A stretch of DNA of 63,298 nt, filler included, from Conidiobolus incongruus B7586 (Eukaryota): assembly GCA_000697335.1 (NCBI GenBank). It is 6 parts of 6 records of this genome, joined end to end, with 100 filler letters (N's around TTAATTAATTAA, not from the genome) between each part and the next. Parts side by side here need not be neighbours in the genome. Positions count along the whole stretch, not along the records: positions 23,307 to 30,385 come from JNEM01006448.1; 5 more parts are not named here. One strand, 5' to 3'. Shown piece by piece: positions 13,366-46,139 of this stretch (the stretch's first letter is position 1; each line of letters starts with the position of its first letter). The notes below the pieces were generated by a model that saw only the letters and a list, made by a program, of their open reading frames with translations, was not told the DNA's origin and made no database searches. A program made the translations under genes and the position numbers.

Positions 13366-14037
13366 ATGATGACCAACTCGATATCAATCAACTCCACCAA
13401 CACCCTTGCCACCTCTTGTGCTCCCTCTCATTATTCTCGTCCTTCTTTACCTCATCATTACGATTCTTATCCTCCTCATTCTGAAAACCACTCATCATAT
13501 CCCTACCCATCTCCTACTATTTCTCATGTCAAACTTGAGCTTCCTTCTCAAAAATCCTATCGTCATTCTTCATCGTCCTACCCATATCCTCCCAGATCTT
13601 CGTCATCGCTTTCTTCTCCTCAAATGCATCATTTGAACACTGATAATCATTATATTTTGCCTTCGCCTGTTGAAGTGACCAAGCCCAAATCTCCATCTCC
13701 CGCTCCTCACTCTTCTTCATTCTCGCTCCCAAGCTTTTCCGAGTTCTTTGGCAATTTGCCTCCTGTTCCTCCACAGCTTCCCTCTACATCTTCCCATTCA
13801 CTTCCTCCACTTCTCCTTCCTAACAAGGCTCCTTCTCAACAACCCACTAAGCGTCCCAGACGCAAGTACCATCAAATTGATCGCAATTACGCCTGTAAAT
13901 ACCCAGGATGCGATAAATCTTATGGTGCTTTGAATCATTTGAATGCTCACATCAAATCCAAGGGTCACGGTGAAAAGCGTAGTCCCATGGAATTCATCGA
14001 AATTAGAAGAGCCCTTTCCAATCTCAATGGAAATTAA
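13366..14037 (+). CDS. con7: Con7-like C2H2 zinc-finger transcription factor (223 aa)
   Basis: Long S/P/H-rich low-complexity N-terminus, then KRPRRKYHQIDRNYACKYPGCDKSYGALNHLNAHIKSKGHGEKRSPMEFIEIRR. This matches the Con7 signature KRPRRRYEEIERxYxCxxxGCEKAYGTLNHLNAHxxxQxHGxKRxPxEFKEIR. GC is clearly elevated over the flanks. Confidence 0.9.
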   Translation: MMTNSISINSTNTLATSCAPSHYSRPSLPHHYDSYPPHSENHSSYPYPSPTISHVKLELPSQKSYRHSSSSYPYPPRSSSSLSSPQMHHLNTDNHYILPSPVEVTKPKSPSPAPHSSSFSLPSFSEFFGNLPPVPPQLPSTSSHSLPPLLLPNKAPSQQPTKRPRRKYHQIDRNYACKYPGCDKSYGALNHLNAHIKSKGHGEKRSPMEFIEIRRALSNLNGN

Positions 14038-17000
14038 AACTCAATCAGTCAGTATCATTAATATTTGATATGATACAACCCTACTCATCAAGAAAAAATT
14101 TCTAGATGATATCTGAAAGTTATACATTTCATTGGCTCTTAAAATTTATAGGAGAGATTACCAATAGATGTAATGGAAGTGTGTATATAATATCGAATTT
14201 AACCTACGTATTTAACTTGGATTCTTAAGGGGGGGGGATTTCAGATTTAAACAAAAAGCTATTTGAACTCTCCGAGTCTTTAGCTTCATATAAAAGAATC
14301 TAAATGAAAAAACATTTGATTTTCAGTTCTTTAGATAAGAACATTTAAATTACATATGATATTATAAGTAATAAAAATTTACTTTGTTATACAATTTATC
14401 ATTATTAACAACTTTTAAATTTTTAAAAATAGAATCTCTGAAAAAATAATTGTCACATGTTTTTACTGAATTATTAAATTATAGATATTGAGTTAAATAT
14501 CAATAATAATAATAATAATAGTTGTTAGTTTATTAATTTATAAATGTAAATTTTATACAAAAAGGATTATAATTAATTTGGTAAGCTTAAAATCAATAAT
14601 GATATTAGGCTAAACTGATTAAATGGTAAATAATAACAATTAATATATCAATATCAATACAAGAATTCAAGTCATGATTTTATTAAGAAAAAAAATATTA
14701 AAAATTAAGTTTTATAAAGAATAATAAGATTATTGTAATAATTTAAAATTTTATTATTAAAATAATAATTAATGTAATAAATTCTCGGGTATATTATAAA
14801 TTATTATTACCGATTCTTAAAATAGAATTATTATTTTACTGTATAATTAAATTTTATTTAGGAGCAGTTAAATGGATAAAAATTTAAAAATGTCAAATCA
14901 TTAAATTACTAATTTTGGTAAATCAAAGAAAATTTCTATATTGGAAGTTCTAAATAAAAAAAACATTATAGTTCGTAGCTATTTTAAGATATTTAAGATG
15001 CTTGAGTATTATATGTATTTATATGATAACTTGTATAATCAAATACATGATTCCATTTTGATTCTTGTATAACAATATTGTGAATTTATTATTTTTGCAA
15101 TTACATTAACTAATATAATAATTTTGAATTTGGAAATAATTTAATATTAACTTTATTATTATGTGAAAATGAAATTATAATTTAATTACTGTATAATATT
15201 TAATGAATCATGAATTTTAATTAAAGAAATTTTCAATCAAAATGATTTGTTTAACTAAATTGAAACTATTGTTTGATAACTAATGTAAATATGAACTAAT
15301 CATAATATCAAAATTTAAGTTTATTGATCATTGGTATATTCTTTCAGCTCATTATCAAGTTTCAATTCTTAAGTCGAAAATGTTTGCATAATTCTTGAAT
15401 CAAATCTTCAAATGGTACCACAAACTTTGCATTACTTAAAATTCGAGACTTTAGGTTCTTGTTTTGGATAGGGGAATATGATCACTTTAACAAACTATTA
15501 TCTTGAATATATTTATATACAAATTAATTAATAAGCTTATTGTTTTATTAAACCATATTTTCGCCAATAGTAGATGCAAATCCGTTGTACACAACTGCTG
15601 ATGATATAGATATTGTTTACTAGGAAACACCAAATCCTAATATGTAAATTAATATAAATAGTCATAATGATTCCGTAATGATGTAATTTAATAACTCTCC
15701 AGCCTTCTGGTGTTAATATTGAAAGCATTAATTTTAATAAATTAAACCAAGAAACAAAAACGGATTCTCAACTTTTTTCTAATTTAGACAATAAATTTGG
15801 TAATTGAAAATTACTTCGGCTCTTCCAAATATACGAAACATACCTAAAAATAAATTTTGAATTTATTATATTTGATATTGATTCATTAATTCCAGTCAAT
15901 AAAAGGCTTGAAACGCATTGTTTACTCTGTATTTTTGAGACTTGTTTGTAAACCAATTTTCAGTAATTATATATATAATATAATTGCATAATTTTTATAG
16001 GCTTAATTATTTTGTAAAAATTAACAGATTTGATTAGTTTGTCAATTTTAATTATAAATAATTTTAGAAGACTGTGTTTTAATTAAATTCATAATATAAT
16101 TGCCAAGAAATAAATTAATTTTCTATACAATTGATCATTTTTTATTTCTAATATGATTAAAGATTTTTTTCAACTTTTTTAATTTGCTATAAAATCAATA
16201 TTGTTTAATTGACCGTCAAAATCAATGTCCGTGAGAATAGATATGGAGAAAATATTTGGATTAAGCGATGTTAATATATGATATATAAACTATCGTTTTC
16301 CAATATTTGACAATTAATAATTCAAAATGTAAACCTAAACTGATTACTATCAGTCTTAGCAAAGTTTATGCCATTATTTTTATTGCATTTTTCAGCATTA
16401 AAAATTTTTATCATAAAACATTAATAATAATTTATTAGATATACCTATATAATTAATTTTTTTAAATTCATTATTTTGATTTCAGCCTTCAAACATAAAA
16501 ATTCCCATATTAACTAGATTTTTTAATTAGAAATATTATAGCGAACAATAAATTAACAAATATTTATTATAGATATTAGTATTAAATAAGAAAATAAAAT
16601 GAAATAAAATATCAATATATAAATTATATTAATGAAAAATCCTGGTATTGATAACTAATAATATTTTTTTTATAAATTAATATTTTATCAATTTAATTAT
16701 TTTTCAATTTATCATTTGATAAATTTTCAATAAAAATTTTGTTTGATAAACATTTTACTTTATTATTAAGGTATAATAATTAACCAATAAAATTAGAATA
16801 TTAAATTTATCCAATTGTTGCTTAAATAAACTAATGAGTTTAATTAAATTTTTATTTCATAAATCATCATCGTTCTAAATTTAGTAACTATGATCAAATT
16901 TTTGAGTCAGATTTTATTTTGATTTAATTTGATTTTAGTCAAATGTATATTATATAAAGTAATCAAAAGGCAAATAAATTAATTGTAACATAATTTAATA

Positions 17001-17162
17001 TTAAGATTAAATATATTATATATATAATTTATATTATTGTATTAAAATCCAGTAATAGAGTAAATTTTTATATTAAAAAAATGAACCTCCTATTTCAAAA
17101 TCAATATATTTTACAAAATAATTAAAAAGTTTTGAATAGTATAAATAAGATTTATAATTTAA

Positions 17163-17166
<4 letters not shown>

Positions 17167-17198
<32 letters not shown>
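17167..17198. repeat. (AT)n microsatellite
   Basis: Direct reading. Similar runs at ~8526-8545, ~55389-55428 and ~59728-59748. Confidence 0.9.
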
Positions 17199-17201
<3 letters not shown>

Positions 17202-18083
17202 TAAACTTTTGTTAAAATTCTATTCAATATAAATTAAACTGATAATTGAATAAATTTTCCAAATAAAGTTGAATAGTGGGCTTTTATAACTTTTGTCGAG
17301 TGATCAATTACAAAAATAAGTACTTGGGTACTAACGTTTATTTTTTTATTTTTTTATTTTTTTTTTTTCATTTTTATATATTACACTTTTAATAATGTTA
17401 TTACTAATCATATTGGACAATATTAACCATATTTTTTACCCGAAAATTTGCTTAATTTTGACCCATTACATCATTCGAATTTCGGATAAAGTGTTCAAGT
17501 TTGACCACCGGGATCCATTATATATAAATTTTGGGTAAAGGTAAATACTTGAATTGGTTTAATTTCAATTTGATATATTGGGTGTTTTAATCTACTTCAG
17601 TCAATATAAAATAAACATATCTAGAATTATTAATATTAGCATTAATATCCAGTAGTATTTCGATTTATTGAAGGGAATACTTAAACATCATAATTGCTTT
17701 CTCACTATAAAATTTTTATCAATATAAATCGATGATATTTATATTATTAATAATAATTTTACTCATGCTGGCACATTATGTTATATGATGGATACACAAA
17801 TGTAATATATTATCCAATATTATCTAATATATATTTTAAACAGTTTAACCATATTACAAAACCTTCTAATAGTGGGGTATTGTTGTATTTTATCACAATT
17901 TATTTTGCATTTAATTTAAAAATTATTAGTTGAATTTTTGTGTAAGTATTCAATTTAAATTTTTTAGTTAGGTATAATAATTGTATTAGTCATCAAAATA
18001 ACTTAATTTAATGTGATTGAATAATCATTTAATCCGACACAAATAGTCATTTATATAATTGATATTATCTATACATTATAATG

Positions 18084-18116
<33 letters not shown>

Positions 18117-21100
18117 AAATATCATAATAATAGTGAAAATTTTAATAAAATGATAAAAAAGGGGATATTGAAATAAAATATGGGTAATAATAAAATTGAT
18201 ATATAAATGGAATAATAGTCGGATTCGATATTATTAATAAATTCTGGGCAAATTAATAATAAAAGAAATTCTAGTGGAAATAGTAGGAATATAATTATCA
18301 TTAATTTACAGCCGAATCTTAAAGAGAATTAACGAACAAATCCAATAATATCACAATATTGGATGAATTATAGAAGACTTTATTAAATCATCACTTGGCA
18401 ATACTTTTTACCAATTTTCATCAAATATTTAGATATAAATATTAATCAAAATGATACTAAAGTTGGATAATACTTCAATCAATATCATAAAATTGATAGA
18501 CTGATTACTCATAGTTAATGTATATAAAATCACTATATTTTTGAAATAATTGTTTTATAGTAAGTTAGAATTGTTTAGTATTAAATAGGGAAATATATTC
18601 GCTTCAATCAGGTATTGTTTTCTTAAGTTTCTTTAAATTCAAAAATTCAAGTAAAATGATAAAATAATTGACTCATTGAATTGATGATCGGTTAAAATTC
18701 CTAATTGGCTAAAGAGAATAAAGTCCCTGAATCCTCTTACTTAATTTGACCATACAACTTCAAATCAAATACCTATAGATTTAAAAGAAACTGTCATAGG
18801 ATAATGATTAATTTAATATTTATTTGATAATTGATGTAATTTAATTTTGAATTTTATTATAAATATAGCAATTAAAACTTCTATTTTTATCCAATATTAA
18901 TATAATAAATATTATTGTATCAAATTGTTAATATGGCAATTAATACATATGGTTTCAATAATAGGAGTTAAACAGTAAAACATCATTAGAACGATAAATT
19001 TAAATTTTAAAGTGAATAATTTTTACTCATATTATTGCAGAGTATATATAATTGCTAATTTAATTTATAAACATATATATACATATATATACTAACCATT
19101 GTAATAATCTATTAATAAAATAGAAATATCTTGACTTCTATTTCAAAATATTATTATAATATTATATTTTTACCCACATAAATATTTTTAAAAAATTTTT
19201 TATAGAATTTTTTAATTACTACCGAAAATCAAAAAAGGAAATCAACGATATTATGGCTTAATTAGAAAACAATAATAGAATATTGAGTTTAAAGAATTTT
19301 ACGGACATATACCTGGATTGGGCGAATTAGGAAATTTGAATGAAAATAGTCACAAATAAACTAATGAATATTTTTATTAATTCAAATGTTTAACCTTTCC
19401 AAACAAATATATGTTCTGAGAATTGACCTAGAACTTCAATTATCAATTATTCAATTTATTAAGGGTAATTTTGAGCGTTATTATATTTTTTAAAATTTCT
19501 CAGTTATACTAATTTATATATAATATTATCCATTTCTTCTTTCAAGGATTGCCTTTATTATTTTAAATCTCTTGAGATTGAACAAGTTTATTTTTTTTTT
19601 CCACTTAATTTTTAGAAAAATGATTGAAACTTGTAATTTTATTATCTACTCCAACCCCCTCCTTTAGAACTCAATTCTATTGGCTGATTATTATCCTAAT
19701 TTCTACTTAGAGTTTCCTTCCCCGTTAGATTCATATTCCAGACTTAATTTTCCACTATAATCAATTTTTTATTAACAATTTTGACATCTGATCTATTAAA
19801 AATTTAATGCAAAATGGGTCGACTCATACATTATTAATCCAATTGGTATGCAAAGTTTTATAATCTATTTAAATTCTTTTTAACTTTTTTCTCATTGAGA
19901 GAATTATTAGCCAATTATATACCATCTCATTTATTTTAATAATTTTAATTTTTAAAATGATTTCATAAATAAATCCCAAGTTTACCCTTATTATAATATT
20001 TTTTATTTTTTTTTCAGTATCCAATCTATTTAATTTAAAATTATTTAAAATACATTAATATTTCATCATATATATTATTATTATTATATCAACAAAAATT
20101 TTTTACACCATTTTTTTTAATGTTATAAAAATAATACTTATTAATTTTATCCATCAATATTTAATTTAATATACTTTAAACATTAAAGTTATGGATAATC
20201 TATTGTCATTTTTTGGAATCTAGACAACGGAATCTTTATCATATTTTGATTTATCCAATTTAATATATTTAAATATGAGATATGTGTGTCTTGAAACCTG
20301 ATTATAATTTAATTAATTAGGCTAAACTTTATATTTATAATTTATTAGTATAATATGATAATTATTGAATCATCATATATTACGATTTAACAATCTGATT
20401 AATATGAATAGTAAATAAATATTTTGTAAAGTAAAAAATAAAATATAAAATATAAATAAATCACTCGATAAATCTTATGACATAAAAAATTTTTTTTCAT
20501 TTTGAAATAATTTTATCTTTATTAAAAAATTTTAATACAAAATTTTATTATTTAGTTTTTAATTACATATCAATATTAATCTTAAATTTATATATATATA
20601 TCAATTTTAATTTTGTTAAAGTATTATCGTTTTTTTGCAAAATTAATTATGAATATAGTTTTTATTGATTTAATGAGAGTAAGTGAGGTAAAATTGAGGA
20701 TTAGTCATGTTTATATGTAATAAAGGTTTAAGTTTATGAGATAACTATGAGAGATTGTTTGGGTTATGATGTTTTTAAATTGAGGTTATTAGATTAAATC
20801 AGTTTAAATTATAATACATCTTGTGTTAATATTAGTGATGATATCATTATACTCAACTAATGCGAAGCATAAATGTACCAAGTTATTAGAATTTAAATTG
20901 AATATTTCATTCTAGATAGTAAATTTTGTCCAATATGCAGAAACACCAGTAATTTGTGAAGGGTCCAGCTTTGAATTGATTACTCATTATATGGTAAAAT
21001 ATGCTTGTAATTATCTATATATTCAGATAAGTTAATTGACTAATAATTGTGAAAGACACACAATTAAACATGTATATATTAGTAGATTTAACAATTAACT

Positions 21101-23206
21101 TTGCAAATTGAAATGATCAGCAAAAAACCGCAACTATAGTTTATAAACTTGGCAATGTGAGATATACAATGATTTGGATTTTGTGTTGGATTACTTATCT
21201 TAATTTGAATAATATTCTATTCTGTCCACAGTATAATGGTTGCATGAATTATCTAGACTGGTATGCATTCTATAGATATTATTTTTTTTGATTAGATAAG
21301 AACCAGACTAAAGATAGATAAATATGATTAGATTTGAGACTTGTCAAATAATACAAAAGGTAAATTTCAATATATACTTTATAAAATTCAATATTATAAA
21401 TAATGCCATTGGCATATTGTGAAAAGATTGGTAGTGTTTATAACAATCATCATCTGAGCTAACATCAATTTTCAAGCAAATAATTTTTGGTTAAATGTAT
21501 CGACTTAACATTCATGATATTTTAATCATTATATCATGTAGGCTCCAATACTAAGAAAAATAAGAACCAATTTAATTAAATTTTTTATTATAATATTAAT
21601 TCCGTTTAGAAGCATATTTAATACTTTTAAATCCTCCTTGAGAAATTAGTTAGCGTGTTTTTTGACACATTAAACCTTTTAATTGACTTGCTTTGGTAGA
21701 TATTAGAAAACGATAAGGTATTATTCAGTTGACTGTTATAATACTAATATTTAAAAGGTAATGAAATGATATTTAAATTAGTGCTGATGTTTAGTATTTA
21801 TTTAAAGCATTCCATCTTTTATAAGGTAGAAATCAAATTTACAAGTTGATCTCTTAACAAATTGATTGACATTATATTCTTATTACTTTACAAAATACTT
21901 ATTTCATTTTAGTATATGTTTCAAAATAAAGTTAATCATACTATTAGTAATATGATGCATTTATAAACAATAAACTTATTATATAATTATATAATATTTG
22001 CTAATTACAATGAATTAATTTCTTTTATATATTCTCCTATCACCGTCTTTTGATATTAGGAATTAAATAATTTTAGATAATTTAATTTATTTTAAAAATA
22101 TATTAATTTTACTAAGTATAATTGTATTAACATGGTAGCTAAAAACATTAAAATATTCAATAAATTAACTAAAATTATCTAAAATTTATCAAATATTCTC
22201 ATTTAATTAGTTTTACAAACTAACTCAATATATTAATAAAATTATTCTGATAATCTTTTAATTAAAAATACCATTTTGTTCCACATTACAGAATTGGTTG
22301 ATCTATTGGTCTTGGCCATTAATTTTAGAATATATTACTAAAGCTAATGCATATTAATATTAAGCAATTTAAATATAGCATATCAATTCCGAATATTCAT
22401 CACACGCATATTTGTTTATTATAACTTATTATTAATATTTAATTACATATAAGGCAAAAGATCAAATTGTAAATTTTAAATCTGTGTTATCATGTTCATG
22501 TTCATTAAAAACAAATTAGAAATTTCATAATTAGAAGAACTTTCAAAATATATTTTAAAATGAATTATAATCTAAAAGTTGATATTTTGATCTAAATTTA
22601 AAAATTACTCAAAGTTCTCGCTATTTTTATCTCTGAGCTAAATTTAGTATTTCATAGTCAATAAATTAAACATATGAAAATTATATTCTGAATAATTAGA
22701 GCTGATAAGAATATAAAATATATAAAGGCGTTTTTATAATAGGTTCTGTTTTACATTAAGTTAATATATTAATTTGGAATTATTTTAGAGTATATTTAAG
22801 TACCAATAAAATATAAAATAAATAATAATAATAATAATAATAATAATGTATCAGTTTATTCTATATAATGAATAATTGATTTAAAATATTTTTTTAATTA
22901 AGAAATAATATCAAATCTTAAATTTTTTAGAAATTAGGTAAAATTAAATTCAAAATTTATATATTTATTATTAAATATAACTTATACTTTTTTATAAATA
23001 ATCAAAATAAAGATATACTATTCAGAATGTTTTTATAATATATAATAATAAAAATATTTTAATTTTTTAATTTATAATTATTATTAAAATACTGAAACTT
23101 AAGATCAATAATTTATATTAATATTTGAAATTAATGATAAATTTTACTATCTAATTTAAATAATAAATTTTAAGTGGATAGAATAAAAAAATTATTTAAA
23201 AAAATA

Positions 23207-23306
23207 NNNNNNNNNNNNNNNNNNNNNNNNNNNNNNNNNNNNNNNNNNNNTTAATTAATTAANNNNNNNNNNNNNNNNNNNNNNNNNNNNNNNNNNNNNN
23301 NNNNNN
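23207..23306. other. Artificial contig spacer (N44-TTAATTAATTAA-N44)
   Basis: Identical 100-bp spacer with stops in all six frames. Also at 30386-30485, 36630-36729, 46024-46123 and 59976-60075. Confidence 0.97.
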
Positions 23307-24318
23307 AATTATTATAATCTAACATCAAATATGGTAATAATTAAAATTAAATAAATCAAAATAATTTGATTAGTCATCAATGCTATTGTATGTATTAGTT
23401 TTGATAATTAATTACTGAGCTAATTGAAATATAAATATATGCATTTTGGAAGTATCTAAATGGAAGAGGTGAAGAATGTTTAATAGTAATAGCTTCAAAG
23501 CTATTGAATATATATCCAGCTATATCACAATTTTAAAATTGATATAATGTTAGCATAGCGATATTTCAGATTTAATTGATATGCTTAGCATTAGCCGATA
23601 GTGAATAATACTTGAAAATTATAAGAACATAGTGAACTATAGCAACTGAAACATGGAATTTAGTAATATGTATAATTTATTTATCAATGTTAATGTATTT
23701 ATTAATTATATTATTAAAAGTATATTAAACACAATATTCCATAGTTTGATATAGAATCATATTATATTATGCATACTGAGGTTTGAGACAAGATTGAAGT
23801 TCTAGTAATGTCAGAATATTAATATAAACTGAGTGTGTGATAAAATTCTAAGTTCTAAAATGCATTTTAATATCACCTATTATGATAATGATATATGCTA
23901 GCATTTTGAATAGCTCTTATATCAATTATTATTATTATTATTATTATTACTATTGTTAGTTATATTAAATAGCTTGAATTCAATTTTCAATTGTTTTAGT
24001 TTTATTTTCGATTGATTGATTGATGAACAATGGCAATTGTTCTGTATTTTTCCATATTGTTGAATTACCCGATGATTTGATTGATATTAAGGAGGTATAA
24101 TATCATTGGTCATCATCACTTTAGAAGTTGCCTTATAAATATTGGCAATTAGGTTTAGACCTACAAGCATACTTTCACACTTCAATTATCTGATTTATCA
24201 AGCTCTCCAGCATATCTACCTTTTCTATAGCCACTTAATTCAAAATGGGTAACGGTTATTCTACAAATTTCATCCCAGCCTCTGAACAACAATATGTACT
24301 TCTCGAACAATTGATCCA
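23307..24318 (+). repeat. Left arm of ~1.01-kb inverted repeat (partner 29371-30385)
   Basis: Starts AATTATTATAATCTAACATCAAATA, the reverse complement of 30361-30385. Identity was followed by eye to ...AATTGATCCA (24318). The only difference seen is (ATT)8 here versus 9 units in the right arm. Confidence 0.95.
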
Positions 24319-24490
24319 GCAAGCCAAAGAAAAGTCACCAAATTATTTGAATTTCGTTATTCTTAATTGTGCTCAAATCTATCCTGAAATTACTGAGAAT
24401 TTGAATGAACCAACCCATGATATTCTTAATCAAAACTCCCAGTATGAGCTTCTCTCAAGTAAATGTTTTAACCTGGTCTCAGCTTTCTAA
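24245..24490 (+). CDS. Small hypothetical protein A (81 aa) with N-myristoylation-like MGxxxS start; paralog of 29202-29444
   Basis: TATAAAT at 24134-24140 and CAAAATG start context. The first 30 aa are identical to the paralog. Synonymous-only differences at codons 25-30 (CAG CAA GCC AAA GAA AAG vs CAA CAG GCC AAG GAG AAG) indicate coding constraint. Confidence 0.8.
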   Translation: MGNGYSTNFIPASEQQYVLLEQLIQQAKEKSPNYLNFVILNCAQIYPEITENLNEPTHDILNQNSQYELLSSKCFNLVSAF

Positions 24491-26263
24491 AATCATAAAA
24501 TGAATTTTAATAATTACAAATTTGTGAATTAAATAAATCAATAGCCAAATTAATATATTTATATTATTTTTTTCGAAAAATAGTATAATATATTTCATTT
24601 CATATAATAGACTTCTAATCTTAAATATATATTTATTGATACTTGATAAAAAAAGCTATAATTTGAATATTTATTAAATATATTGAAAGTGTAGAAACAA
24701 AATTTTTCTAGAATTATTTAAAATTAGGAATCATTCAGTGTTATTGTTAAATATATTTCACAATAATTAAATAGCAAATTTATTATTAAGCTTTTGACAA
24801 ATCTTATAATTTTTAATATATTGAAATTTTTGTTCATCAAATATTCAAAATTTATATCAAATTTTACAAGAAATAATTTTATACACTATTTTACTGAATA
24901 TTATTTGTTGATATTTAGAAATTGAATATATATTATTTTAATGCTTATTGTCATAACATTATTGAAAGATATATTTAATACAATTAAATAATATAATTTG
25001 ATGAATATAATTACTAGAACATATTTGTATTTTTTTTTCATTTAAAAAGATTATATTGATTGAAAATTTGATTGTTATTAATCTCTCATTTTGGAGAAAA
25101 ATAATATTTGAAAAATTTATTAATATGGAAAGTATACCAAGTTTATAGAGTTATTATTCTACACTGTAATTTGTAATTATATGGATTTGAAAGTTAAAAA
25201 GTAACTTAATTCTTATCAGTAACAATTTTTAATTAAGTTATATTATAAAGATAAATTTTATTTTCAAATAAGATTTGATATAATATTATTAACCCTATAC
25301 AAAATAAATAATATTCATTCAGTTTATATATCCTATTGGAAATAACTGATTTATAATATTATATCCTTAATTATTAAATTCAATGATATTATCTATGAAA
25401 AATGGTTAATTCACTTGTGTTTTATAATTTTGAATAAAATTATAACAAAATTTAAATTTTTATGACTATATTTTTTAACAATTGGAAAAAAATTAATTAT
25501 TATAATGAGATTTACTTAATATTAGGCTATATTTAATTTTATGAGATTGATTGAATATATTAAATTTTAAATTATGCTCCAAGGTGAGCTACACATTAAA
25601 TTATCCTTCTTTATCAATTAATCTGTTTTATATTTATATTTAATAGATATTCTGAGAATTACTCATTTAATTTCTGTTCAGCCTAAACTCCATAATAAAT
25701 ATACCTAAAATCATTTACATTGGGTTCTTGCTAGTCGTTCAATCAAACGAATAAATGATTAGGATATAGATATCAATATTACAATTAATATCAGATAGTT
25801 AATGCATACATTTTATATTCTAGTTTAGATTTTGTAAACATTGTTAATATTGTTAATGTTGAATATAATTATGATATTAATATTTAATGAAATTTAATGA
25901 AATGTGGGTTTTAAATTCATTGTTTGTATTTTCGTATTGTTTATATATCATCAATAGATAATTATTATGATCATTGCTAATATTAAATTAAATAATATTC
26001 ATTTGACATAATTTTGCCAATTTGATTAATAATTTCAATTATTGCTATAAAGATCTTTGTTCGATTGTAATTTCAATTGTTAATTGTAATTAATGTTTGA
26101 TTGTTTTGTAAGGAGGTTTACCAATTAAAAATTAATATCCTCTAGAAATTTTATTATAAATATGAGCTTTATAATTCAAATCTTTAATCATAGTTTCTGA
26201 AATTAATTTCGTGTAATTCCTCTCTCCAACATCCTTATAATTTCTTTAGTTTCTTATTTTGAA

Positions 26264-26845
26264 ATGGGTAATACTGGTGCTAAACCTTCAGGGAATTCCG
26301 ATATAACATCTATGATGGAGTTCTGCTATTATACTGAATTTAAGGATAAATGTGACTTACTCAGCGCAGAGCAAAAAATCGTGATATATAATGCATATAA
26401 CCCACATACACCATTCGCATATTCTAATAGTATTACTATTGATGAAGGTAAAAGTAATCTTTGTTTGCTCAATACCTATCGTAAGGCAAACGGGAAGCCA
26501 CCTTTGTATTGGAGTAATAAGATCGCTCAAGCTGCCCAAGGCCATGCTGAGAATATGAAGAATGCAAATGAACTCACCCACCAGCTTCAGGATGAACAAC
26601 CTCTTCATGAACGTATCTCAAGTCAAGGTGGTCAATGGACCACTGTAGCTGAAAATGTTTCTAGTGGTTCACATTCATACATTGAAGCAGAAGCTTCATG
26701 GAAAGATTCTTTATCCAACCGCAATAACCTGCTTGGTAACTACACCCACTTCGGCTACGGCCAAGCTAGTAACCTTAGATCGAATTTTTATGTCCAAAAT
26801 TTTGCCTGGTCAGATACTGAACCCAAGATTGAAACTAATTGTTGA
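26264..26845 (+). CDS. CAP/SCP (PR-1 superfamily) domain protein, bacterial YkwD-like subtype, no signal peptide
   Basis: CAP motifs: LLNTYRKANGKPPLYWSNKIAQAAQGHAENM...LTH...RISSQGGQWTTVAENVSSG...WKDSLSNRNNLLGNYTHFGYG...FYVQNFA. Confidence 0.9.
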   Translation: MGNTGAKPSGNSDITSMMEFCYYTEFKDKCDLLSAEQKIVIYNAYNPHTPFAYSNSITIDEGKSNLCLLNTYRKANGKPPLYWSNKIAQAAQGHAENMKNANELTHQLQDEQPLHERISSQGGQWTTVAENVSSGSHSYIEAEASWKDSLSNRNNLLGNYTHFGYGQASNLRSNFYVQNFAWSDTEPKIETNC

Positions 26846-27678
26846 TTTCATTTTATCTATTAATAATATTAACATCACTGACACTATTATACTTAAATAA
26901 ATAATAATTGTATGTTTTAATGGAATATGATATGGTTATTGCAAATATGAGAACTTTACTAAATTGAACAAATCATTAAATAATTCAAAAAAATCCTTCC
27001 AAAACAAGTGGTAAGATTTGATTTTGTTATAATATTATGATAGAATTTTACCATATATAAAAATGGGAATTATTTGAACAGAATAATGAATCTGAATTCA
27101 TAAACGAATCAAACTATGCTAGTGAAATAACATTTCGTAAATCATTTATAGTGAAGATATATCCATCTAAATCGAAATAAATTTATTCGACAATTCACAA
27201 TAATTATTATTGTTTGTAATGATTAATGCATCGTGATTAATGGTTTATATAGAACTTTGATCGATAATATTTTAAATATATTATATATATATAGTATAAA
27301 TCAATATATCATTTATCAATATTAAATTAAATACAATAATTCAGTATTTTGATATATATTATTGGGTAGCAAGAGGATTTTAATTTTGACACATTAAAAG
27401 TAATCTTTTTATATTATTTATATTTGCAAAAATGGTGATATTATGATGAAAAAGCATATAAAAGTGTCAAGATAACTTTCTGCTCCAGTCTTAAGAACTT
27501 GAATTTTTATATTGAGCAGAGAAATCAATGAGGCAAGCTAGCCAAGCATGAGATTAATAAGGACTCCACCTTCTATAAATAAGCTAAATGAGCCACCCAT
27601 TCTAAGTTTATTGGAATAAAAATAGTTCTCAATTAACTCATAATAAACATTCTATTCCACTCTATTCTCAACAATAAA

Positions 27679-27975
27679 ATGCCTTCTTACTTCCTACTCC
27701 TAATTCATAAAAGTCTCTGTGAAGCCTAGCTCATGAGATAATTACTTCCATCACAATTATTAATTCAGATCCAAGCTTATCCACAATCTTTAAAATATCC
27801 CATTCATGTGATCTCATAGCTAATCACTCTGATTAAATCCTTTATTTTCCCATTCATACTGAAAATCATTTCTCTCTTTAAAAACAGCCTTAAAATAATA
27901 AAACTCCCTTGCAGTTAATGAAAAAAGGGTATATATAATTAGAAACTTATATAGCCATAACTCTATTGCTGATAA
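27679..27975 (+). pseudogene. Possible degraded small gene inside the IR-bounded contig
   Basis: GC-elevated island with TATAAAT at 27574 and AAAATG start. After a frameshift it reads ...ANHSD*ILYFPIHTENHFSL*KQP*NNKTPLQLMKKGYI*LETY, weakly resembling TENHF...KPLECLSKNTLSL of paralog B. Several TAA stops could derive from CAA. Confidence 0.3.
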
Positions 27976-29201
27976 AATATAAATATAATTTATATATTCA
28001 AAGGATTAGATTTTGGTGCGCAAAGCTTGAACTAAATTTATTTTATTATATCTGGAGCAATTAAATTAGGCTTTTCAATTTGAAAAAGTGTTTATAATTT
28101 AAAAAAATTATTTTATTCAAAGATTATTCATTATATTCTATTTAAATTGCCAGTTTTCAAACTCAAGATTGCAAATACCTATATATATACATATGATGAT
28201 TTTTCTATTTCATTTTCTAGTTATAAATACAAAATCAATTACTTTTGATATGATTCATTCAGTTATCATTATTGAAATTGAATTGTATATCCATATTATA
28301 TCGTTTTAAATCCAGAGATGGATAATAAATCATAAAGATATTAATACAGCTCATCAATATATCATTTTGGGTAATATATTCCAAAATAATAGTATTCAAT
28401 AAACATGCGTATTAAAATATACTTTCTTGAATAATTTTCATAAAGTATTGTGATTCGAGTGCTGATTTTGGTGTATCTTAATCCAAGAAAATAAATGCTT
28501 TTGATACCAATCCTACAAATAAGTATAAAAAATTAAGCCTGAATTTTAAAATGTATAAAAATCTTAATTGATTTAATTTATATAATTTGAATTTATAATG
28601 AATTAAATTCATATTTCTAATATTTACCAAATTGAATTAATATATAATTGAAATTGATTTTGATTATAAGTTATTTTAAATATTAAGGATGAAATTATTT
28701 ATAATATATTATTGTTATGTTTAATTATTGGAGTATCTAGATAATCTTTATAACAAATTTTCTAATCAACATCATTTCCAATATATTTTAATATTTTTGT
28801 TTCTCCAAAAAAAGTTATATTGGTTGGAATTAATGAATTATTAATTAAGATAGAATTGATTAGTATAAATTGCCATATTCGAAATGATAACAAGTTTTCA
28901 CAAGGGTTTTAAATTACAAAGTTATTGCTGTTCTCGGATATTTAATTTTATTATTAGTCATAAGTTTTGAATAAAGATATATTATATAACTTTCGAATAA
29001 TTTTATATATAATATAATTCTGATATATAATTCAAATTTGAACATCTTAAAAACAGTCAGTTATTGCAAAATAAGATAATATTAATAAAATTTTGATATT
29101 AATTCCAAGATTAATTCTAATATTATCAAAATAATCAATTGATTTTTATTCATTTATGATATATTTTGAATATGATCGATATTTCATATTCAATGAAAAA
29201 T

Positions 29202-29444
29202 TTAAACCACGGCAACCAAACTCAGAGTATTTTTTGATAGACATTCAAGAGGTTTATCATCAAGAAGCTTGTATGGGAGATTATGTATATTCCTTATATC
29301 TTCAAAGTGATTTTCAGTAGATGGATCGATAATATCACTCAAATAAATTTCTGGCTTCTCCTTGGCCTGTTGGATCAATTGTTCGAGAAGTACATATTGT
29401 TGTTCAGAGGCTGGGATGAAATTTGTAGAATAACCGTTACCCAT
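29202..29444 (-). CDS. Small hypothetical protein B (80 aa) with MGxxxS start; paralog of 24245-24490
   Basis: Same promoter and first 24 codons as paralog A (inside the IR). The remainder is divergent but colinear (xxxYL...ExLSxxxxxLVxx). Confidence 0.8.
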   Translation of the reverse strand: MGNGYSTNFIPASEQQYVLLEQLIQQAKEKPEIYLSDIIDPSTENHFEDIRNIHNLPYKLLDDKPLECLSKNTLSLVAVV

Positions 29445-29735
29445 TTTGAATTAAGTGGCTATAGAAAAGGTAGATATGCTGGAGAGCTTGATAAATCAGA
29501 TAATTGAAGTGTGAAAGTATGCTTGTAGGTCTAAACCTAATTGCCAATATTTATAAGGCAACTTCTAAAGTGATGATGACCAATGATATTATACCTCCTT
29601 AATATCAATCAAATCATCGGGTAATTCAACAATATGGAAAAATACAGAACAATTGCCATTGTTCATCAATCAATCAATCGAAAATAAAACTAAAACAATT
29701 GAAAATTGAATTCAAGCTATTTAATATAACTAACA

Positions 29736-29766
<31 letters not shown>

Positions 29767-30385
29767 TTGATATAAGAGCTATTCAAAATGCTAGCATATA
29801 TCATTATCATAATAGGTGATATTAAAATGCATTTTAGAACTTAGAATTTTATCACACACTCAGTTTATATTAATATTCTGACATTACTAGAACTTCAATC
29901 TTGTCTCAAACCTCAGTATGCATAATATAATATGATTCTATATCAAACTATGGAATATTGTGTTTAATATACTTTTAATAATATAATTAATAAATACATT
30001 AACATTGATAAATAAATTATACATATTACTAAATTCCATGTTTCAGTTGCTATAGTTCACTATGTTCTTATAATTTTCAAGTATTATTCACTATCGGCTA
30101 ATGCTAAGCATATCAATTAAATCTGAAATATCGCTATGCTAACATTATATCAATTTTAAAATTGTGATATAGCTGGATATATATTCAATAGCTTTGAAGC
30201 TATTACTATTAAACATTCTTCACCTCTTCCATTTAGATACTTCCAAAATGCATATATTTATATTTCAATTAGCTCAGTAATTAATTATCAAAACTAATAC
30301 ATACAATAGCATTGATGACTAATCAAATTATTTTGATTTATTTAATTTTAATTATTACCATATTTGATGTTAGATTATAATAATT
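29371..30385 (-). repeat. Right arm of ~1.01-kb inverted repeat
   Basis: Reverse complement of 23307-24318, 3 bp longer because of one extra AAT unit. It ends exactly at the contig end. Confidence 0.95.
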
Positions 30386-30485
30386 NNNNNNNNNNNNNNN
30401 NNNNNNNNNNNNNNNNNNNNNNNNNNNNNTTAATTAATTAANNNNNNNNNNNNNNNNNNNNNNNNNNNNNNNNNNNNNNNNNNNN

Positions 30486-30854
30486 TCTTTTAAAGTTAAT
30501 TAATATATAAGTATATTTTTAAAAAAGGATTCAAGTATAATAATACTAATAAAAAAGATTTAATATATCTATAAATTACTATATATAATCATAAGAAAAA
30601 AAATATAGTTATATATTATTAAATATATCCCTTTATCTTAAAAACCTATAAATTTATAATTTATTTTGATTAAATATTAAAGTTTAATTTTTTGCTAATA
30701 ATTTATTAAATATATTTAAATATATTTATTTATTATCAAATAATATATTTTAATTATATATTAGAGTTTTAATAATTATATATATATAATTATTTTAGTT
30801 ATTAATAAAAATATATATATTTTTAATTTTATGACTTATTTTTTAGGGTTAATA
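30486..30854 (-). mobile_element. 5' end of a Tc1 (DD34E) element copy, truncated by the contig end
   Basis: The reverse complement aligns with 60311-~60690 (TIR ...AAATAAGTCATAAAATTAAAAATATAT; inner block AAATTTATAGGTTTTTAAGATAAAGGGATAT; start of the transposase). Flanked by TA. Confidence 0.85.
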
Positions 30855-32202
30855 TAATAGTTAATACTAATATACTATATTATTAACAAAATATAGTCTT
30901 AATTTTAAAAATAATATAAAGGAAATAAAAATAAAAATTAAGTGAAAAAAAAGCTTAGATTATAAGATAATTTAATATTATTTATAAAATTAATTTAGAT
31001 TTAAAAGTATATATTACCTATAAAACTTATAATAAATAAAATTATATAGAAATATAAATAAGAATTTAAATAACTAATCTTCTAGTAATTTTCCTTTATT
31101 ATAATAGTTCAAATCAATTTTTTCTAAATTTTAAAGTCTTACTATTACTAATTAGGTATGATAGTCTAATAGTTTCCCACTTTTAAAACTAAACTGACAT
31201 TATTAATATATATTAGATAAATCTATATATTAAAATCAAAAATTAATTTTTTATTTTGAAAAGATTAATTAAAATTATAATAATCCAATAATATCATATT
31301 ATTATTGAAAAAAAATTATTTTGTGTCATTTAGGAAATTATTGATAATAACTAACAATAATTAGCATTTTTTAAGTTTCCAAAACTTAAATAATAGTTCC
31401 TTTTATTTGATATATAATAAATTAACATAATTTCCAAATTTATATATATTAGTAATATATAGTGAAAATAAATATTATAAATTAGAATATATTATATTAC
31501 TTTATTAATTGTTTAGCAGTATTCAAATTTTTACTTTAATGATATAGTTTTTGAAAATGAAAAATAAATAATTCAAACATTAATCAAACATGACTAAAGT
31601 TATCATTGAACATAGTGTCTCAAAATTTTGTAAATAAATTAATTGGTAAAAATTTAAATACTTTCTATATGTTTGAAATTTGTAAAATTAAGATTAAAAA
31701 TTTTTAGCATTGTCAATAATCGGTTCTATTTATTATGAATTTATGTATTAATTAGAGCTTTAGCTCCAATGTATCCATATTGCAAGTAAGCTTTCCGAAT
31801 ATGATTGATCAGCCAAAGTTTAACATTTTTCGAATTTATAATTTCAGTAAAATTTAAATACGAATTTTAAATTAACTATGTATTCGGTTTCTAAATCAAT
31901 CAATTTACAACAAACAATCAAGTGAGTAGATTATTTTGAAATGATTTTCCTATATAATGTATTCATAAATATTATTCTTAACAAATATCAGAATAAGGTT
32001 AATATATTTCTTAAACAATATAAAACATTACCCAAAATTATATCATATTTTATTTTAATATTCAAACACAATATAAATAATGTGGAGAGAGTTGATGAAG
32101 GTGTAAAAATATTTGATATTTTCATTAAATATAAATATTCAGCAATTATATTTGATTAAAAAATCAGTTGATTGTTATTAAATATTAAGGCATCTTACTA
32201 CT

Positions 32203-35087: not shown

Positions 35088-35396
35088 ATGAAATTCTTGC
35101 CAATCTTAACTGCTTCTTTGCTCACCCCCTTCGTTGTCGCCGAGCACTATTATTATCCTTATAGTCTCATTGAAGTCATCCTCAATTTGGACGTCAGAAT
35201 CCATGTAAACGCGAAAGTTAACATTGATATCATTAATAACTATTGTCATCGCTACTCGGACGACTCTAACTATGAGGAATGCGAATTGCCTCTTATCGGC
35301 TATGACCATGTAGATGCACCACTAATTAAAGCTAAAGTAGATGCTGATATTAAAGGAAAAATTGATGTTCATGCCAAAGCCAAAGTCGATTTATAA
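35088..35396 (+). CDS. Small secreted protein (102 aa) with alternating V/I-D/K beta-rich segments and 2 Cys
   Basis: Signal peptide MKFLPILTASLLTPFVVA, elevated GC, and a pseudogene paralog 2.6 kb upstream. Confidence 0.8.
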   Translation: MKFLPILTASLLTPFVVAEHYYYPYSLIEVILNLDVRIHVNAKVNIDIINNYCHRYSDDSNYEECELPLIGYDHVDAPLIKAKVDADIKGKIDVHAKAKVDL

Positions 35397-35943
35397 TTCA
35401 ACCTTAATATACATTAATAAATACTACTAATTATATTCTGAAATCAAGTGTTGTGTTTGTTAAGCTTTCAATAACTTTATCTGTATATTCAAATTAATAT
35501 TACAATATATATGGAAGTTTCAACAAATATGGATGTATAATATTATTATTGTTTGAATTATATTTATATAGTAATTTTATTTGTATCAAAATTAATTTTT
35601 AGTATATATAGTGTACTTTAATATTTCCTTATATTGTAAAGCAAAATTTTAAAGCTATTTAATTTAATATAAGTTACAAACCGATATTTCTGATGATCAT
35701 ATATATTTCCTTAACCAGAATATATTTCTTTATTCCGTTATTTTAAATCATGGTGATATACTCCATTGAATATAAACAAAAATGAATTATATAATTCCTA
35801 AAACCCAATATTATATTGACTTATGAATAGTATATAATTTGTATTTTACTTATTTATTATTAATGAAATAAATGACAATGTAATAATTATATATGGTATT
35901 TTCTTGATTACAAGATCAAAGTCATCTTTAAAAATTTATAATA

Positions 35944-36629
35944 CACTAACCTACAAAAGTAAGTCATAAAATCAAAAATATATACATATTTTTTAATAAC
36001 AAAAGCAATTATATATATTAAATTACCTGAAACTATAATATATAATTAAGGTATATTATTTGATAATAAAAAATATATTTAGATATATTTAATCAACTAT
36101 TAGAAAAATATTAACCCTTATTATTTAACTAAGATAGGTTATAAATTTACAGGTTTTTGAGATAAAAGGATATATTTAATAATATATAACCATATCTTTT
36201 TTCTCTCTTTGTTATTATTTTATATAATATTTTATAGATATATTAAATTCTTTTTATTAATATCATTATGTTTAAATCCCTCACTAAAAAAATTTATTTT
36301 TGTATTAATCAATTTCATAAAAAAATAAATTAATTTATGATATTATTAAAATTACTAATGTTAACTAATTTACTATAATTAAAGCTATTAAAAATAACAA
36401 TAAAAATACATTTAAACTTCAATATATATAGATTATGAATTAATATAATAACAAGTATATTTATAAGTTAATTAATATAAATAAGTATAATATTATTGTA
36501 AAAATATAACAAGAATTATAAAATTAAATAAGAATATTGGTTAATACTAATATTATTATATATATTTTATATTAAAATAAATATTACTTATAATTTAAGA
36601 AAAAATATTGTTAATTAAAACATAATTTA
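35944..36629 (+). mobile_element. 5' half of a Tc1 (DD34E) element copy, truncated by the contig end
   Basis: TA then CACTAACCTACAAAAGTAAGTCATAAAATCAAAAA. Colinear with 60311-~60995 and retains the transposase ATG (ATG TTT AAA TCC CTC, ~36268). Confidence 0.9.
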
Positions 36630-37444: not shown

Positions 37445-37741
37445 TTATTGACAAACATTATTAAAAGTTCTTTCAACAACTTTCAACTCCCCCAAACTCA
37501 TTTTATAGCTGGTAAACGTATATTCATTGATGGGGCCTTGACATTGGCCATTGTAGCATAATTGCTTACCGTGGTCCTTTTGAGTACAGCTGGATTTATT
37601 GCTATAAATTATCTTCTTGGCCAAGATCAATGTCTTCAAAGGTTCTGTATGAGTCGAATTTTGAAGATAATGGAACAATGTATACTGTTTAGCTAATATT
37701 GTTGAGGTACTTAAAAGTATGGATATAATTATTAATTTCAT
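37445..37741 (-). CDS. Small secreted 4-Cys protein (98 aa)
   Basis: Signal peptide MKLIIISILLSTSTILA. Pattern C-x9-C-x4-C-x~29-C-x-stop (SSCTQKDHGKQLCYNGQCQGP...FNNVCQ) is shared with 38581-38889. Confidence 0.8.
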   Translation of the reverse strand: MKLIIISILLSTSTILAKQYTLFHYLQNSTHTEPLKTLILAKKIIYSNKSSCTQKDHGKQLCYNGQCQGPINEYTFTSYKMSLGELKVVERTFNNVCQ

Positions 37742-38580
37742 TGTTTAATTGGCAATATTTTTGATTGAGCATTGATATACTATCTATTTATATTTTTTGA
37801 CAACAAGGTTTAAAATTTTAATTTATCACAATAAATCATGTGCTCAAAAATTATGTAATTTAAATATAATAAATTGATTAAAATTTAATCAAAAAATTAT
37901 CTAGATTCTTATTATTTAATATTACCTAAAGAACCAATTTTAACTAAATAGTTTCAAAATATTTACGAAATTGTATAATTTAACGATCTAAAAATTATTA
38001 AAATATATTCAAAACTCAATATTAAATTTAAATAAATTAACTTAATAATGATTTTAACTCAATTATAGATCAATATTAATCAAAATAATGTGATTTAATA
38101 TATTAAATGATTTAAATTAAATTTATAATCTCACTAAATAAAGAATTAGCGATACTTAGTTTAGATTTAAATTAAATATTTAATTAATATCATCAATCAT
38201 ATTTTCATTTAAACTGTAAATTAATAATAACATTCTTTAGAAAGATTTCAATAATAAGGAACTAATCATTATAAATTTTAAATTGACAAATACTAGTATT
38301 GAGGCTAAATTTAATTAAGTTTAATTTCTAATCCTTTACATTTAGTAATTTTGATTAAACTTCGAATTATAATCAACACACTCCCAAACCATTAACCATA
38401 ACAGAGGTTGCATCAATAGAAGCTATTACGATATTTCAATATCAATTTGATATTACTTATTTGGCTTTAAACAAAAGATATTTGATGAGTATATGATTTG
38501 ATTACTTATAATCACTTCGTTAATATTAAATAAGATATTGTACCAAAGATTAATGATTTAAAAATTGAATATTTATTTTG

Positions 38581-38889
38581 TCATTTACAAACATCTTGGA
38601 ACCAAGTGCGATCACCGGAATCCCAGCTCTCGGATCCTCGAGCAAATATTCTACCTAGAGAAGCGACAGGAGGCTGTGTGCACTGCTTGCCTTCACATAG
38701 CCATTCGCCATCATCAAAGTAATTACAAGAAGTTGTACCATTACTACGCACTCCTTCATTGGTGTAAATTCTAGTACTCAAAGTGAACAAGTCTGTCTTG
38801 GTCCCGTAATAATAGGTAATCGCAAATTGAACACCAAATACGCTAGAAATATAAAAAATTAAATTCATTTTGAACTTCATTATCATCAT
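38581..38889 (-). CDS. Small secreted 4-Cys protein (true start probably Met at 38880 or 38868)
   Basis: Hydrophobic leader MNLIFYISSVFG, then TSCNYFDDGEWLCEGKQCTQP...WFQDVCK. A close pseudogene copy is adjacent. Confidence 0.85.
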   Translation of the reverse strand: MMIMKFKMNLIFYISSVFGVQFAITYYYGTKTDLFTLSTRIYTNEGVRSNGTTSCNYFDDGEWLCEGKQCTQPPVASLGRIFARGSESWDSGDRTWFQDVCK

Positions 38890-39115
38890 AAATAAGTGAT
38901 ATTATGTTAATTTATATTAATCCTATAAATTCAACAAACTGCTTGAATTGGATCAAGTTATATTTTATTAGAAATGAAATTGATCACATGAAATAAATTG
39001 ATAAACAAAGGATTTCACTATTGAAAATGAAAATTATTGAATAATTAACAAAATTTTATTTGAAATCTTTAATATTAACAATGATTAAAGAAAAAATATT
39101 TCAATAATTATTGAT

Positions 39116-39403
39116 TCATTTACAAACATCTTTGTACCAAGTACAATCGCCAGAATCCCAAAGCTTGGATTCATACACAAATTTATAGAGAGAGTAGTGA
39201 GAATAGGCTGTGTGCACTACTCGCCATAAGATACCCTTTCTCCATCGCCAAAGTAGCCGCAAGAAGTGATTCCACTTTTATTCACCCCTTTGTTGGTATA
39301 AATCCTGGTTCACAAAGTGAATAAATCAGTCTTTGTTCCTTAGTAATAGGTGATAACAAATTGAACGCTAAAAAAGGCTAGAGATATAAAAGATCAAATT
39401 TAT
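39116..39403 (-). pseudogene. Pseudogene paralog of 38581-38889
   Basis: Reads (ATA)NLIFYISSL../VQFVITYY*GTKTDLFTL*TRIYTNKGVNKSGITSCGYFGDGERVSYGE*CTQP../YESKLWDSGDCTWYKDVCK*. Start ATG>ATA, three internal stops, frameshifts. Confidence 0.9.
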
Positions 39404-41296
39404 TTTTGGACTATCTAATAAATTGGTATTGAGTACTTTTGATTCATTTATAAAATTATTCCATTAATCTGATAAATGAACTTTTGTAATCAATTTTTTA
39501 GTTTGGAAGAAAATTTGATCACACGTATTAGAATAATAACGTATTAATAGTTATACTGTTTCGTAAAACTTTGATAGAATTTAAACTCCGACATAGACTA
39601 TTTAAAGATTATTATTGGATAATATATCTGTATCAATGATGTTCAAATCATTTGACTAAGTAAGAAATACCGCTTATATTATATCTTATAAAAAGGTATT
39701 GTTATAATTTATTTTCCCGAAAAATAATTGTTTTTAATAAATTTTCAGATATCATCAAGATTCTGATACCAATATTTTTTATTTAACATAATTAAAAAAT
39801 TCAAAAATCATTTAATTATGACCTAATTTTAATATAAATTAATAATATTTTAAAATTATTATTCGCTCAGTAATTGGTTTATTAAATTTTTTAACTTTAT
39901 AACATTCATAACATAAATTTTTCCATAATAGATATCCCCAGGTAAATTTTATTAAATATAACCAAAATAATATTAAATAATTTGACTATATTGATTTATA
40001 TAATGAAAAATTAATTATTATTTCATTATATATAAAAAAGATAAAAATGATAGAAAAATATTGAATATTTTATTTTTTTTAATAAACTTAAAAAATTCAG
40101 ATTAAAAAATTAATAAAATAGTAATTAGTAAATTTCATTGTTATAATATATTTTTTTAAATGAGTATAAAACCTTTCAAATATAAATCAATCAATTATAG
40201 AAATTTTTATCATTGAAAAATATCACTATAAACAATTAAGCATTTTTTGTTGAAATTTTAATTATTATTAAGTTATTACAAGTAAAATCTCAATATAATA
40301 ATAATAACTAATTACTAATTTTGATTGATGGATCCCAGAATTAGTTTATATATATCAAAATATAATTGTCAATTGATATATTATATACATTTTTTATTAT
40401 CATAAAAAAGCAATATATGTAGTTTAATATGAACTATATTTTGAATTATTAATTTATAATATCCAAATAATCATTGGTTTAATTACAATCCTAGTATACA
40501 TTATTAATCTTGTGACTAACTCATATTATTCATATTTAAAGGTTTTACCTGTTATTATACTTATTAATACTCATCCAAATAATTATGATAATTTAAATAA
40601 ACTAAATAAAAATATTGATTTATTTTATTACATAAATAAATAAAATTATTATCAATTGATTGATACTATCCTATAATAAATATATTATTATATAATATAT
40701 TTATTAATATTATAATTTTTAATATAATTGATTTTAGACTAGCTATATATAAGTTAATTCAAAATAATAATATTAAGTATTATTATTATTTTTATGATAT
40801 AAAAATAAGAGAATTATATAAACAATTAAAGCTGATATTAATTTTAAATGATAATGATTGATTAATAAGAATGGATATATACAAATTGAAAAATAATCCA
40901 ATTTATATTATCAAAATTTAATGAGAATTGTGAACCATTAGGTTGATAGAATTTTTATGGAAGTTCTTTAATCCAGAGAGTGTCACAGTTCTCAGTGGCA
41001 TCATCACTGAAATCATGATCTACAGGGAATTGTCACCAATCCATAACCCGCACAGCTAGAACTGTGCTGTATACTGGTGGATGAACCACTAATAAATAGA
41101 AATATATTAAAGTAAATAAGTAAGGTTTATTGTAGATATTGCGGATAATAACAAGTCGAGGCTTAGTTATTATACCAAAGATGGTATTTATACGGTAATA
41201 CCAGTATTGAGATTGAGTCATATACACATGATATAATTCTATTGGCTGGATGATAGGAGAAACACGATCAGATCCGTCAAGGAGCGACTAGACTAA

Positions 41297-41367
41297 GCAA
41301 TGGTGGTTTAGTGGTATAATTACCGCCTGCCACGCGGTAGACCGGGGTTCGATTCCCCGCCATTGCA
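41297..41367 (+). tRNA. tRNA-Gly(GCC), intronless
   Basis: GCAATGG/CCATTGC acceptor stem plus A discriminator. D-arm GTTTAGTGGTATAAT, anticodon arm ACCGC-CTGCCAC-GCGGT, T-arm CGGGG-TTCGATT-CCCCG. T-run terminator ~15 nt downstream. Confidence 0.97.
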
Positions 41368-45306: not shown

Positions 45307-46139
45307 TATTTTTAAAATTAATTACTTTAAAATTAGTTATTTAAATTTATTTTAAATTTATAAGTATAATTTATAGGTCAATTAAAAATTAAGTTCAAAT
45401 GTATTTGATTTTGATAATTTATGAATATCAATAATATTATTTAGTAAAATAAGCTATTGATTAGTTTATTATATTAAATATAATCAATATTTATAATTAA
45501 TTTTCAAGTGAATATCTCAATGAATATTTTAATAATTTAAAATTTTAAAATTTTTTTATTAATTATTTAAATTATTTTTTTAAAGAAATTTATTATATAT
45601 TTAATTATTTAATTATTTATCTTATAATGAAATCAAAGTATATTAATGATAAAAATATGATTTTAAATTAATTATAATAATTTATAATCAATTAGTTTTT
45701 AAATAAATAATTTAAAAATATGTCACTATAAGTTAATTAATATTAAAATTAAAATATTTGATAAAATATTAAATTATAATAGATTTTAATTAATAATTAT
45801 ATTATATTATATTATATTATATTATTTAATATATTATTACTTTGAATTTGAAATAATGAGAATTTTTAAATTTTGATTTTTCAAACATATTATTAATTTT
45901 AAATAAATAAATATACACAAAATAAATAATAAATAATAAATATATCTAATAATATTTTGATTAAAAAATTATCTTTTAAAATTGGTTATTTAATTTATTT
46001 ATATTTATATTAAATAATAAATANNNNNNNNNNNNNNNNNNNNNNNNNNNNNNNNNNNNNNNNNNNNTTAATTAATTAANNNNNNNNNNNNNNNNNNNNN
46101 NNNNNNNNNNNNNNNNNNNNNNNAAAAAAAAATTATTTA

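Follow-up and report, generated by a model that had tools for sequence, protein, structure and literature searches.

The DNA analysed here (the window) is a stretch of 63,298 nt from Conidiobolus incongruus B7586 (GCA_000697335.1), joined from six parts. At positions 23307–30385 it holds a contig (JNEM01006448.1) whose two ends carry the same sequence in opposite orientation. Each of these ends, the arms of an inverted repeat around a 5-kb core, contains the promoter and first codons of a small gene, A on the left and B on the right, and contig graphs add a third paralog, C, beyond one arm. The locus is best filed among inverted paralogs homogenised by conversion, given two real, near-identical arms that contain paralog sequence and an identical tract (0 substitutions in 1012 nt) beside old divergence (11 of 51 aligned columns identical) within the same genes. 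A preliminary description of the locus had proposed an invertible flip-flop switch; its account of old paralogs, of two real arms and of a core free of recombinases holds, and the switch itself is not supported.

The left arm (23307–24318, plus strand) is 1012 nt long and the right arm (29371–30385, minus strand) 1015 nt. As had been described, they are identical apart from one microsatellite unit: no substitution was found over 1012 nt (95% upper bound on divergence 0.3%), and the sole difference is the number of ATT units, eight in the left arm and nine in the right. Each arm consists of 74 nt of coding sequence preceded by 938 or 941 nt of upstream DNA that has a TATA-like motif at −111, in agreement with the roughly 940 bp, TATA box and 74 nt first reported, and no arm 31-mer occurs elsewhere in the window. 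Three blocks can be told apart in the left arm, all on the plus strand: an outer block O (23307–23950), block M (23925–24018) and block P (23989–24318; 330 nt, −256 to +74), which holds the promoter and N-terminus and has three genome copies, in A, B and C. A further block, Q (29289–29400, minus strand; 112 nt), reaches to codon 52 of B and has two copies, in B and C only.

Gene A (24245–24490, plus strand) encodes 81 amino acids beginning MGNGYS, with the TATA-like motif at −111 and an AATAAA 42 nt past its stop codon; gene B (29202–29444, minus strand) encodes 80, of which the first 30 are as in A, with an AATAAA 52 nt past the stop. Both open reading frames (ORFs) look like genes, judged by their GC content (35%, vs 20.6% for the window), the TATA and AATAAA motifs, and the rarity of ATG frames of at least 80 amino acids in shuffled sequence (0.075 per shuffled 9.1-kb flank, 200 shuffles). 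The identity between them stops sharply in codon 25, as first noticed, and codons 25–30 (QQAKEK) carry four synonymous and no amino-acid differences. Past codon 30, the alignment in which 11 of 51 columns are identical reaches a score equalled by 6 of 5000 shuffles, which, set against arms free of substitutions, bears out the earlier view of A and B as old paralogs with identical 5′ ends. Since codons 25–30 lie outside the identical tract and show only synonymous changes, the N-terminus was conserved beforehand and homology was available.

N-myristoylation follows a PROSITE-type pattern of a glycine at position 2 and a small residue at position 6. A, B and the product of the CAP-domain gene between them (see below) match it, as a pattern match only, and none of five other window genes checked does. 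The A, B and C proteins are predicted to be N-myristoylated, membrane-attached and co-regulated, with variable C-termini. An AlphaFold model built from a two-sequence alignment (mean predicted local distance difference test score, pLDDT, 49) suggests, at low confidence, a shared helix at residues 12–29 of the small proteins. Homology searches gave no candidate relative for the small proteins and no usable Atlas match, none of eight window proteins was on record, the best PDB match had E = 0.61, and none of 263 pattern matches in a metagenome scan with B was confirmed. Two long tandem-repeat proteins were rejected as relatives, as their score came from 7–11 repeated stretches. By these searches A, B and C appear to form an orphan gene family with no known relatives, and the excerpts returned by a literature search held nothing on such a locus in Conidiobolus.

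The core between the arms (24289–29400) is single copy up to 29318 and would be inverted by a crossover between them. The only gene recognised within it is a CAP-domain gene (26264–26845, plus strand; 193 amino acids; PF00188, E = 9e-17), whose protein begins MGNTGA; this gene and gene C add to the first description, and the third copy makes the locus richer. The CAP protein, like those of the two genes flanking it, starts with MG, and no signal peptide is evident by eye. Its only match in PDB, 4ifa, carries the label of an extracellular SCP-domain protein; bacterial CAP clusters make up most of the Atlas neighbours listed, which is no sign of gene transfer. No close sequence relative was found, and none of 52 pattern matches in a metagenome scan was confirmed. 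That the core encodes no recombinase, as had been stated, agrees with a Pfam search of 11 ORFs and 58 further window frames, which gave no match to a recombinase, transposase or mating-type family, the contents of the gaps being outside view. The 58 frames comprise 53 of the 100 with a GC content of at least 27%, plus five others, out of 266 frames of at least 40 amino acids; the 47 left out overlap genes or a tRNA already identified. Rfam gave nothing in the arms.

Read depth and graph structure were taken from the contigs of four DNA runs (X1–X4) that hold 99% of the window's words; three further runs with the same species label hold next to none of them. Contig depth is a rough measure, and single substitutions may go unseen in public contigs. 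Short joints and loose ends were numerous, with sides of 20–25 letters in AT-rich DNA, and were taken as chance matches. The core at 24289–29318 forms one 5030-nt unitig in X1 and X2 and overlapping pieces in X3 and X4, with depths of 39.5, 39.1, about 20 and about 10.5 in X1 to X4. Relative to the core, block O stands at 1.54–2.23 times and block P at 3.05–4.12 times in all four runs, block M at 1.62–1.78 and block Q at 1.78–2.66. In X4 the values are near-integer (P about 3, Q about 2), and the excess depth of P and Q in X1–X3 would be explained by their higher GC content (32–34% vs 23%).

At the outer base of the arm the graph forks to two pieces, 1655 nt long at depth 25.1 and 248 nt long at depth 41.5, whose depths in X1 sum to 66.6, vs 65.9 for the arm; in X4, P has a depth of 32.2, vs 28.0 entering and 28.8 leaving it, and Q 18.8, vs 17.0 leaving. 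Both inner junctions fork exactly at the arm ends. Depth and forks together show that both arm copies are real and that the contig stops at the actual outer limit of the repeat. The comparison of arm with core depth upholds the two arms over an assembly duplication: that a single arm was written twice, as the stop of both arms at the same base beside a pad might suggest, has a negligible probability given the depth of the outer arm in all four runs, two distinct outer continuations with additive depth, and the inner forks. A transposon with terminal inverted repeats was also rejected, there being no transposase match, an outer arm at two copies by depth, and no arm 31-mer elsewhere in the window. 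The preliminary description had taken the matching contig ends for what an ambiguous or polymorphic orientation would give. They are explained by the repeat edge, where the graph forks to two single-copy flanks, so that neither flipping nor polymorphism is needed. Any repeat that exceeds the reads gives matching ends in a fixed orientation, and at an inverted repeat they do not speak for flipping.

Both arms end at pads, of which the window has five, identical and 100 nt long, each N44-TTAATTAATTAA-N44 with a 12-mer that places stops in all six frames; we infer that they are gaps of unknown size. The 30-letter loose ends of the C branch and of the start of the 1655-nt flank are both absent from the window, so both pads hide real sequence: that at 23207–23306 either the 1655-nt unique flank or a 188-nt spacer and gene C, and that at 30386–30485 the remaining continuation. 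Forks are seen at 23989 and 29289, though the deposited contig alone predicts neither. At its other end the 248-nt piece connects to P at the upstream edge, an inner link listed for X1, X2 and X4, and a second 3′ branch of 476–1204 nt leaves Q in all four runs. A third paralog, C, is thus present, with a promoter block that lies past one arm, at a distance of 188 nt, and faces away from it. From −256, C matches A as far as +74 and B as far as +156, these identities being approximate, and its 30 visible letters beyond are open in frame (PEEKTLNES, vs LDDKPLECL in B), with 13 of 30 nt identical; this divergence makes C an old paralog too. Scaffold gaps, as this case illustrates, can hide a family member that alters the interpretation of a locus.

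With these copy numbers the block graph can be walked in four complete linear orders; one linear order together with a circle is also compatible with it. Inverted arms are found in the deposited contig and in two of the four walks, both core orientations giving the same contig graph. In the other two the long arms are direct, as would result from inversion at the shorter repeat shared with C. These walks allow that the contig was mis-resolved, with A or B in truth preceded by the 188-nt spacer and the arms forming direct repeats around A, CAP and B, an arrangement that would favour deletion over inversion. Block P, at 330 nt, is a three-way repeat beyond contig resolution, and the ATT difference that would mark separate assembly of the arms is unconfirmed: the outer unitig has 644 nt, and two ATT alleles would predict 643. 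The assembler nevertheless carried both genes across P and on into M and O, with unlike numbers of ATT units in the two arms, an outcome to be expected if read pairs were used locally. On this ground the deposited form is favoured, and we regard mis-resolution as unlikely. The order would then be flank, arm, A and CAP reading rightward, B reading leftward, arm, 188 nt and C reading rightward, which would set B and C back to back with their start codons 1385 nt apart.

Identical tracts that nest within one another, on coding ends of old divergence, are consistent with ectopic gene conversion, and we think it probable that conversion among oppositely facing copies of the three old paralogs recently overwrote their front ends. 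Break repair, guided by homology in the conserved promoter and N-terminus, would have copied 1012 nt between A and B in one tract and 412 nt between B and C in another; both would cover the promoter and start codon, each stopping within the gene where the proteins diverge. A one-off duplication or fusion, for example by template switching, could instead have pasted the promoter and gene start onto old 3′ halves with no recurring homogenisation, in keeping with the sharp outer edges at unrelated flanks and the absence of substitutions in the arms. We judge this improbable, as there are two separate tracts over the same promoter block, both ending in register within homologous coding sequence, and two in-register tracts imply at least two homology-guided events. 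Under gene conversion, inversion of the 5-kb core would be an incidental result of a rare crossover between the arms; little effect is expected of it because A and B keep the same 938 nt upstream and only the neighbour beyond changes.

Several observations weigh against gene conversion in the arrangement just given. The outer 680 nt of the arm end at unrelated flanks, so one-sided copying, not two-ended conversion, would be needed there. No related locus was found in other species by homology or metagenome scans, leaving recurrence and the direction of copying unsupported. All four runs come from one sample, possibly the source of the assembly itself, and the link of the 248-nt piece to the outer end of the arm is seen in X1 only, among the 16 of 35 rows listed. 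Taken with GC bias ignored, the P depth of 3.5–4.1 times the core in X1–X3 could mean four copies. Only two of the four linear orders contain the deposited contig, with the core either way round, and the one-unit ATT difference may be real or an assembly slip, which weakens the argument for the deposited form.

A regulated flip-flop, in which inversion at the arms or at the B/C repeat activates one variant and silences the other, would draw on the invertible geometry, with its four interconvertible linear forms, and on a left flank (about 14–23 kb) with one ATG frame of at least 60 amino acids. An inversion at the B/C repeat would be of greater consequence than one at the arms, as it would move the distal 680 nt of the promoter from B to C; nothing shows that it occurs. 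None of the genes lacks a TATA or a start codon of its own, however, and a flip of the core alters nothing within 938 nt of either ATG. With no silencing landmark identified, no recombinase, transposase or mating-type family in the frames searched, and the shared contig ends explained by the graph fork, such regulation seems highly improbable. The two-state device first proposed also sits poorly with a third paralog that shares the promoter block, which favours homogenisation across the family. Very unlikely, in our view, is also a recombinase-free cassette of three genes and multiple inversions, in which two overlapping inverted repeats and four interconvertible arrangements would deal two long promoters and one short one among three myristoylated variants and so set their expression.

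Shufflons combine one promoter and N-terminal part with promoterless cassettes, short recombination sites and a site-specific recombinase. The likeness to them that had been drawn, a constant N-terminus with variable C-termini, is superficial: the genes here are complete, A and B each with a full promoter and ATG and C with its promoter and ATG by the graph, no promoterless variable cassette is present, and the 11 ORFs and 58 window frames contain no recombinase family. The comparison with mating-type inversion fares no better, as the invertible region has no MAT genes and CAP alone is recognised in it. Ogataea (Hansenula) polymorpha has identical 2049-bp inverted repeats around an invertible core (PMC4238957, PMC5720833), with MAT genes inside, one position repressed and inversion induced by starvation (PMC4238957). 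In the parts of these papers available to us, the likeness to our locus lies in identical inverted repeats flanking a core, and the difference in the MAT genes; our locus is also not known to have a silenced side or to invert.

Closer parallels are found where arms are homogenised by conversion. The Caenorhabditis briggsae genes CBG13231 and CBG13232 have an overall identity of 59.6%, rising to 100% in the first 297 nt; their promoter arms are conserved, and gene conversion was proposed (PMC1803023). As far as the available portions of that paper go, such inverted pairs resemble the present one in having opposite paralogs, near-identical promoter arms and an identical start on a diverged gene; the Caenorhabditis pair is divergent, whereas at our locus A and B point towards each other over a 5-kb core and nested tracts arise with the third copy. 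The spacer of C. elegans F44E5.4/5, at 126 bp, is the only length given there for such a pair (PMC1803023). In Saccharomyces, conversion homogenises the arms of the flip/flop (FF) region on chromosome XIV, and inversion is a side effect, with no mapped phenotype and no case among about 53,800 mitoses and 950 meioses; these arms are 4.2 kb long with whole genes, both orientations are documented, and the structure is kept in eight species (PMC9731477, in the parts available). FF with its Centroid genes and the Conidiobolus locus share gene-containing inverted repeats around a unique core, lineage-specific genes without recognised domains, an orientation that short reads cannot settle, and an explanation that invokes no recombinase. 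Unlike those of FF, the arms here are 1 kb long and stop in codon 25, and only one orientation is seen, from contigs.

The locus would thus represent concerted evolution centred on a promoter, in a fungal lineage that has been little studied, with an orphan family keeping its promoter and N-terminus while the C-termini diverge. The excerpts returned by a literature search held no programmed rearrangement unrelated to mating type in Entomophthoromycotina; if several arrangements within one clone were to track expression, the locus would be such a case.

Elsewhere in the window, 9 kb to the left of the repeat (14038–23206) is nearly free of ORFs, and before it lies a proline/serine-rich protein with a weak C2H2 zinc-finger match (13366–14037). 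The only Rfam match is a tRNA at 41297–41367 (plus strand), and a lariat debranching enzyme gene, with a Pfam match to the DBR1 C-terminal domain, lies in split frames at 42647–43850 (minus strand). Small genes with hydrophobic N-termini and no Pfam match occupy 35088–35396, 37445–37741, 38581–38889 and 39076–39406; the last is a tandem copy, 73% identical, of 38541–38871, and has no listed ATG frame of 60 amino acids. AT-rich dispersed repeats at 30488–30859, 35939–36620, 44806–45333, 46148–46692, 60079–60994 and 61656–62203, whose copies are 73–87% identical and often lie beside pads, are probably decayed non-autonomous mobile elements. An MFS transporter at 49533–51206 is 58–69% identical to four Conidiobolus coronatus proteins among 12 matches; it forms an MFS/TRI12-like tandem (70% identical over 1.58 kb) with a copy at 55874–57586 (minus strand) that has in-frame stops and is probably a pseudogene.

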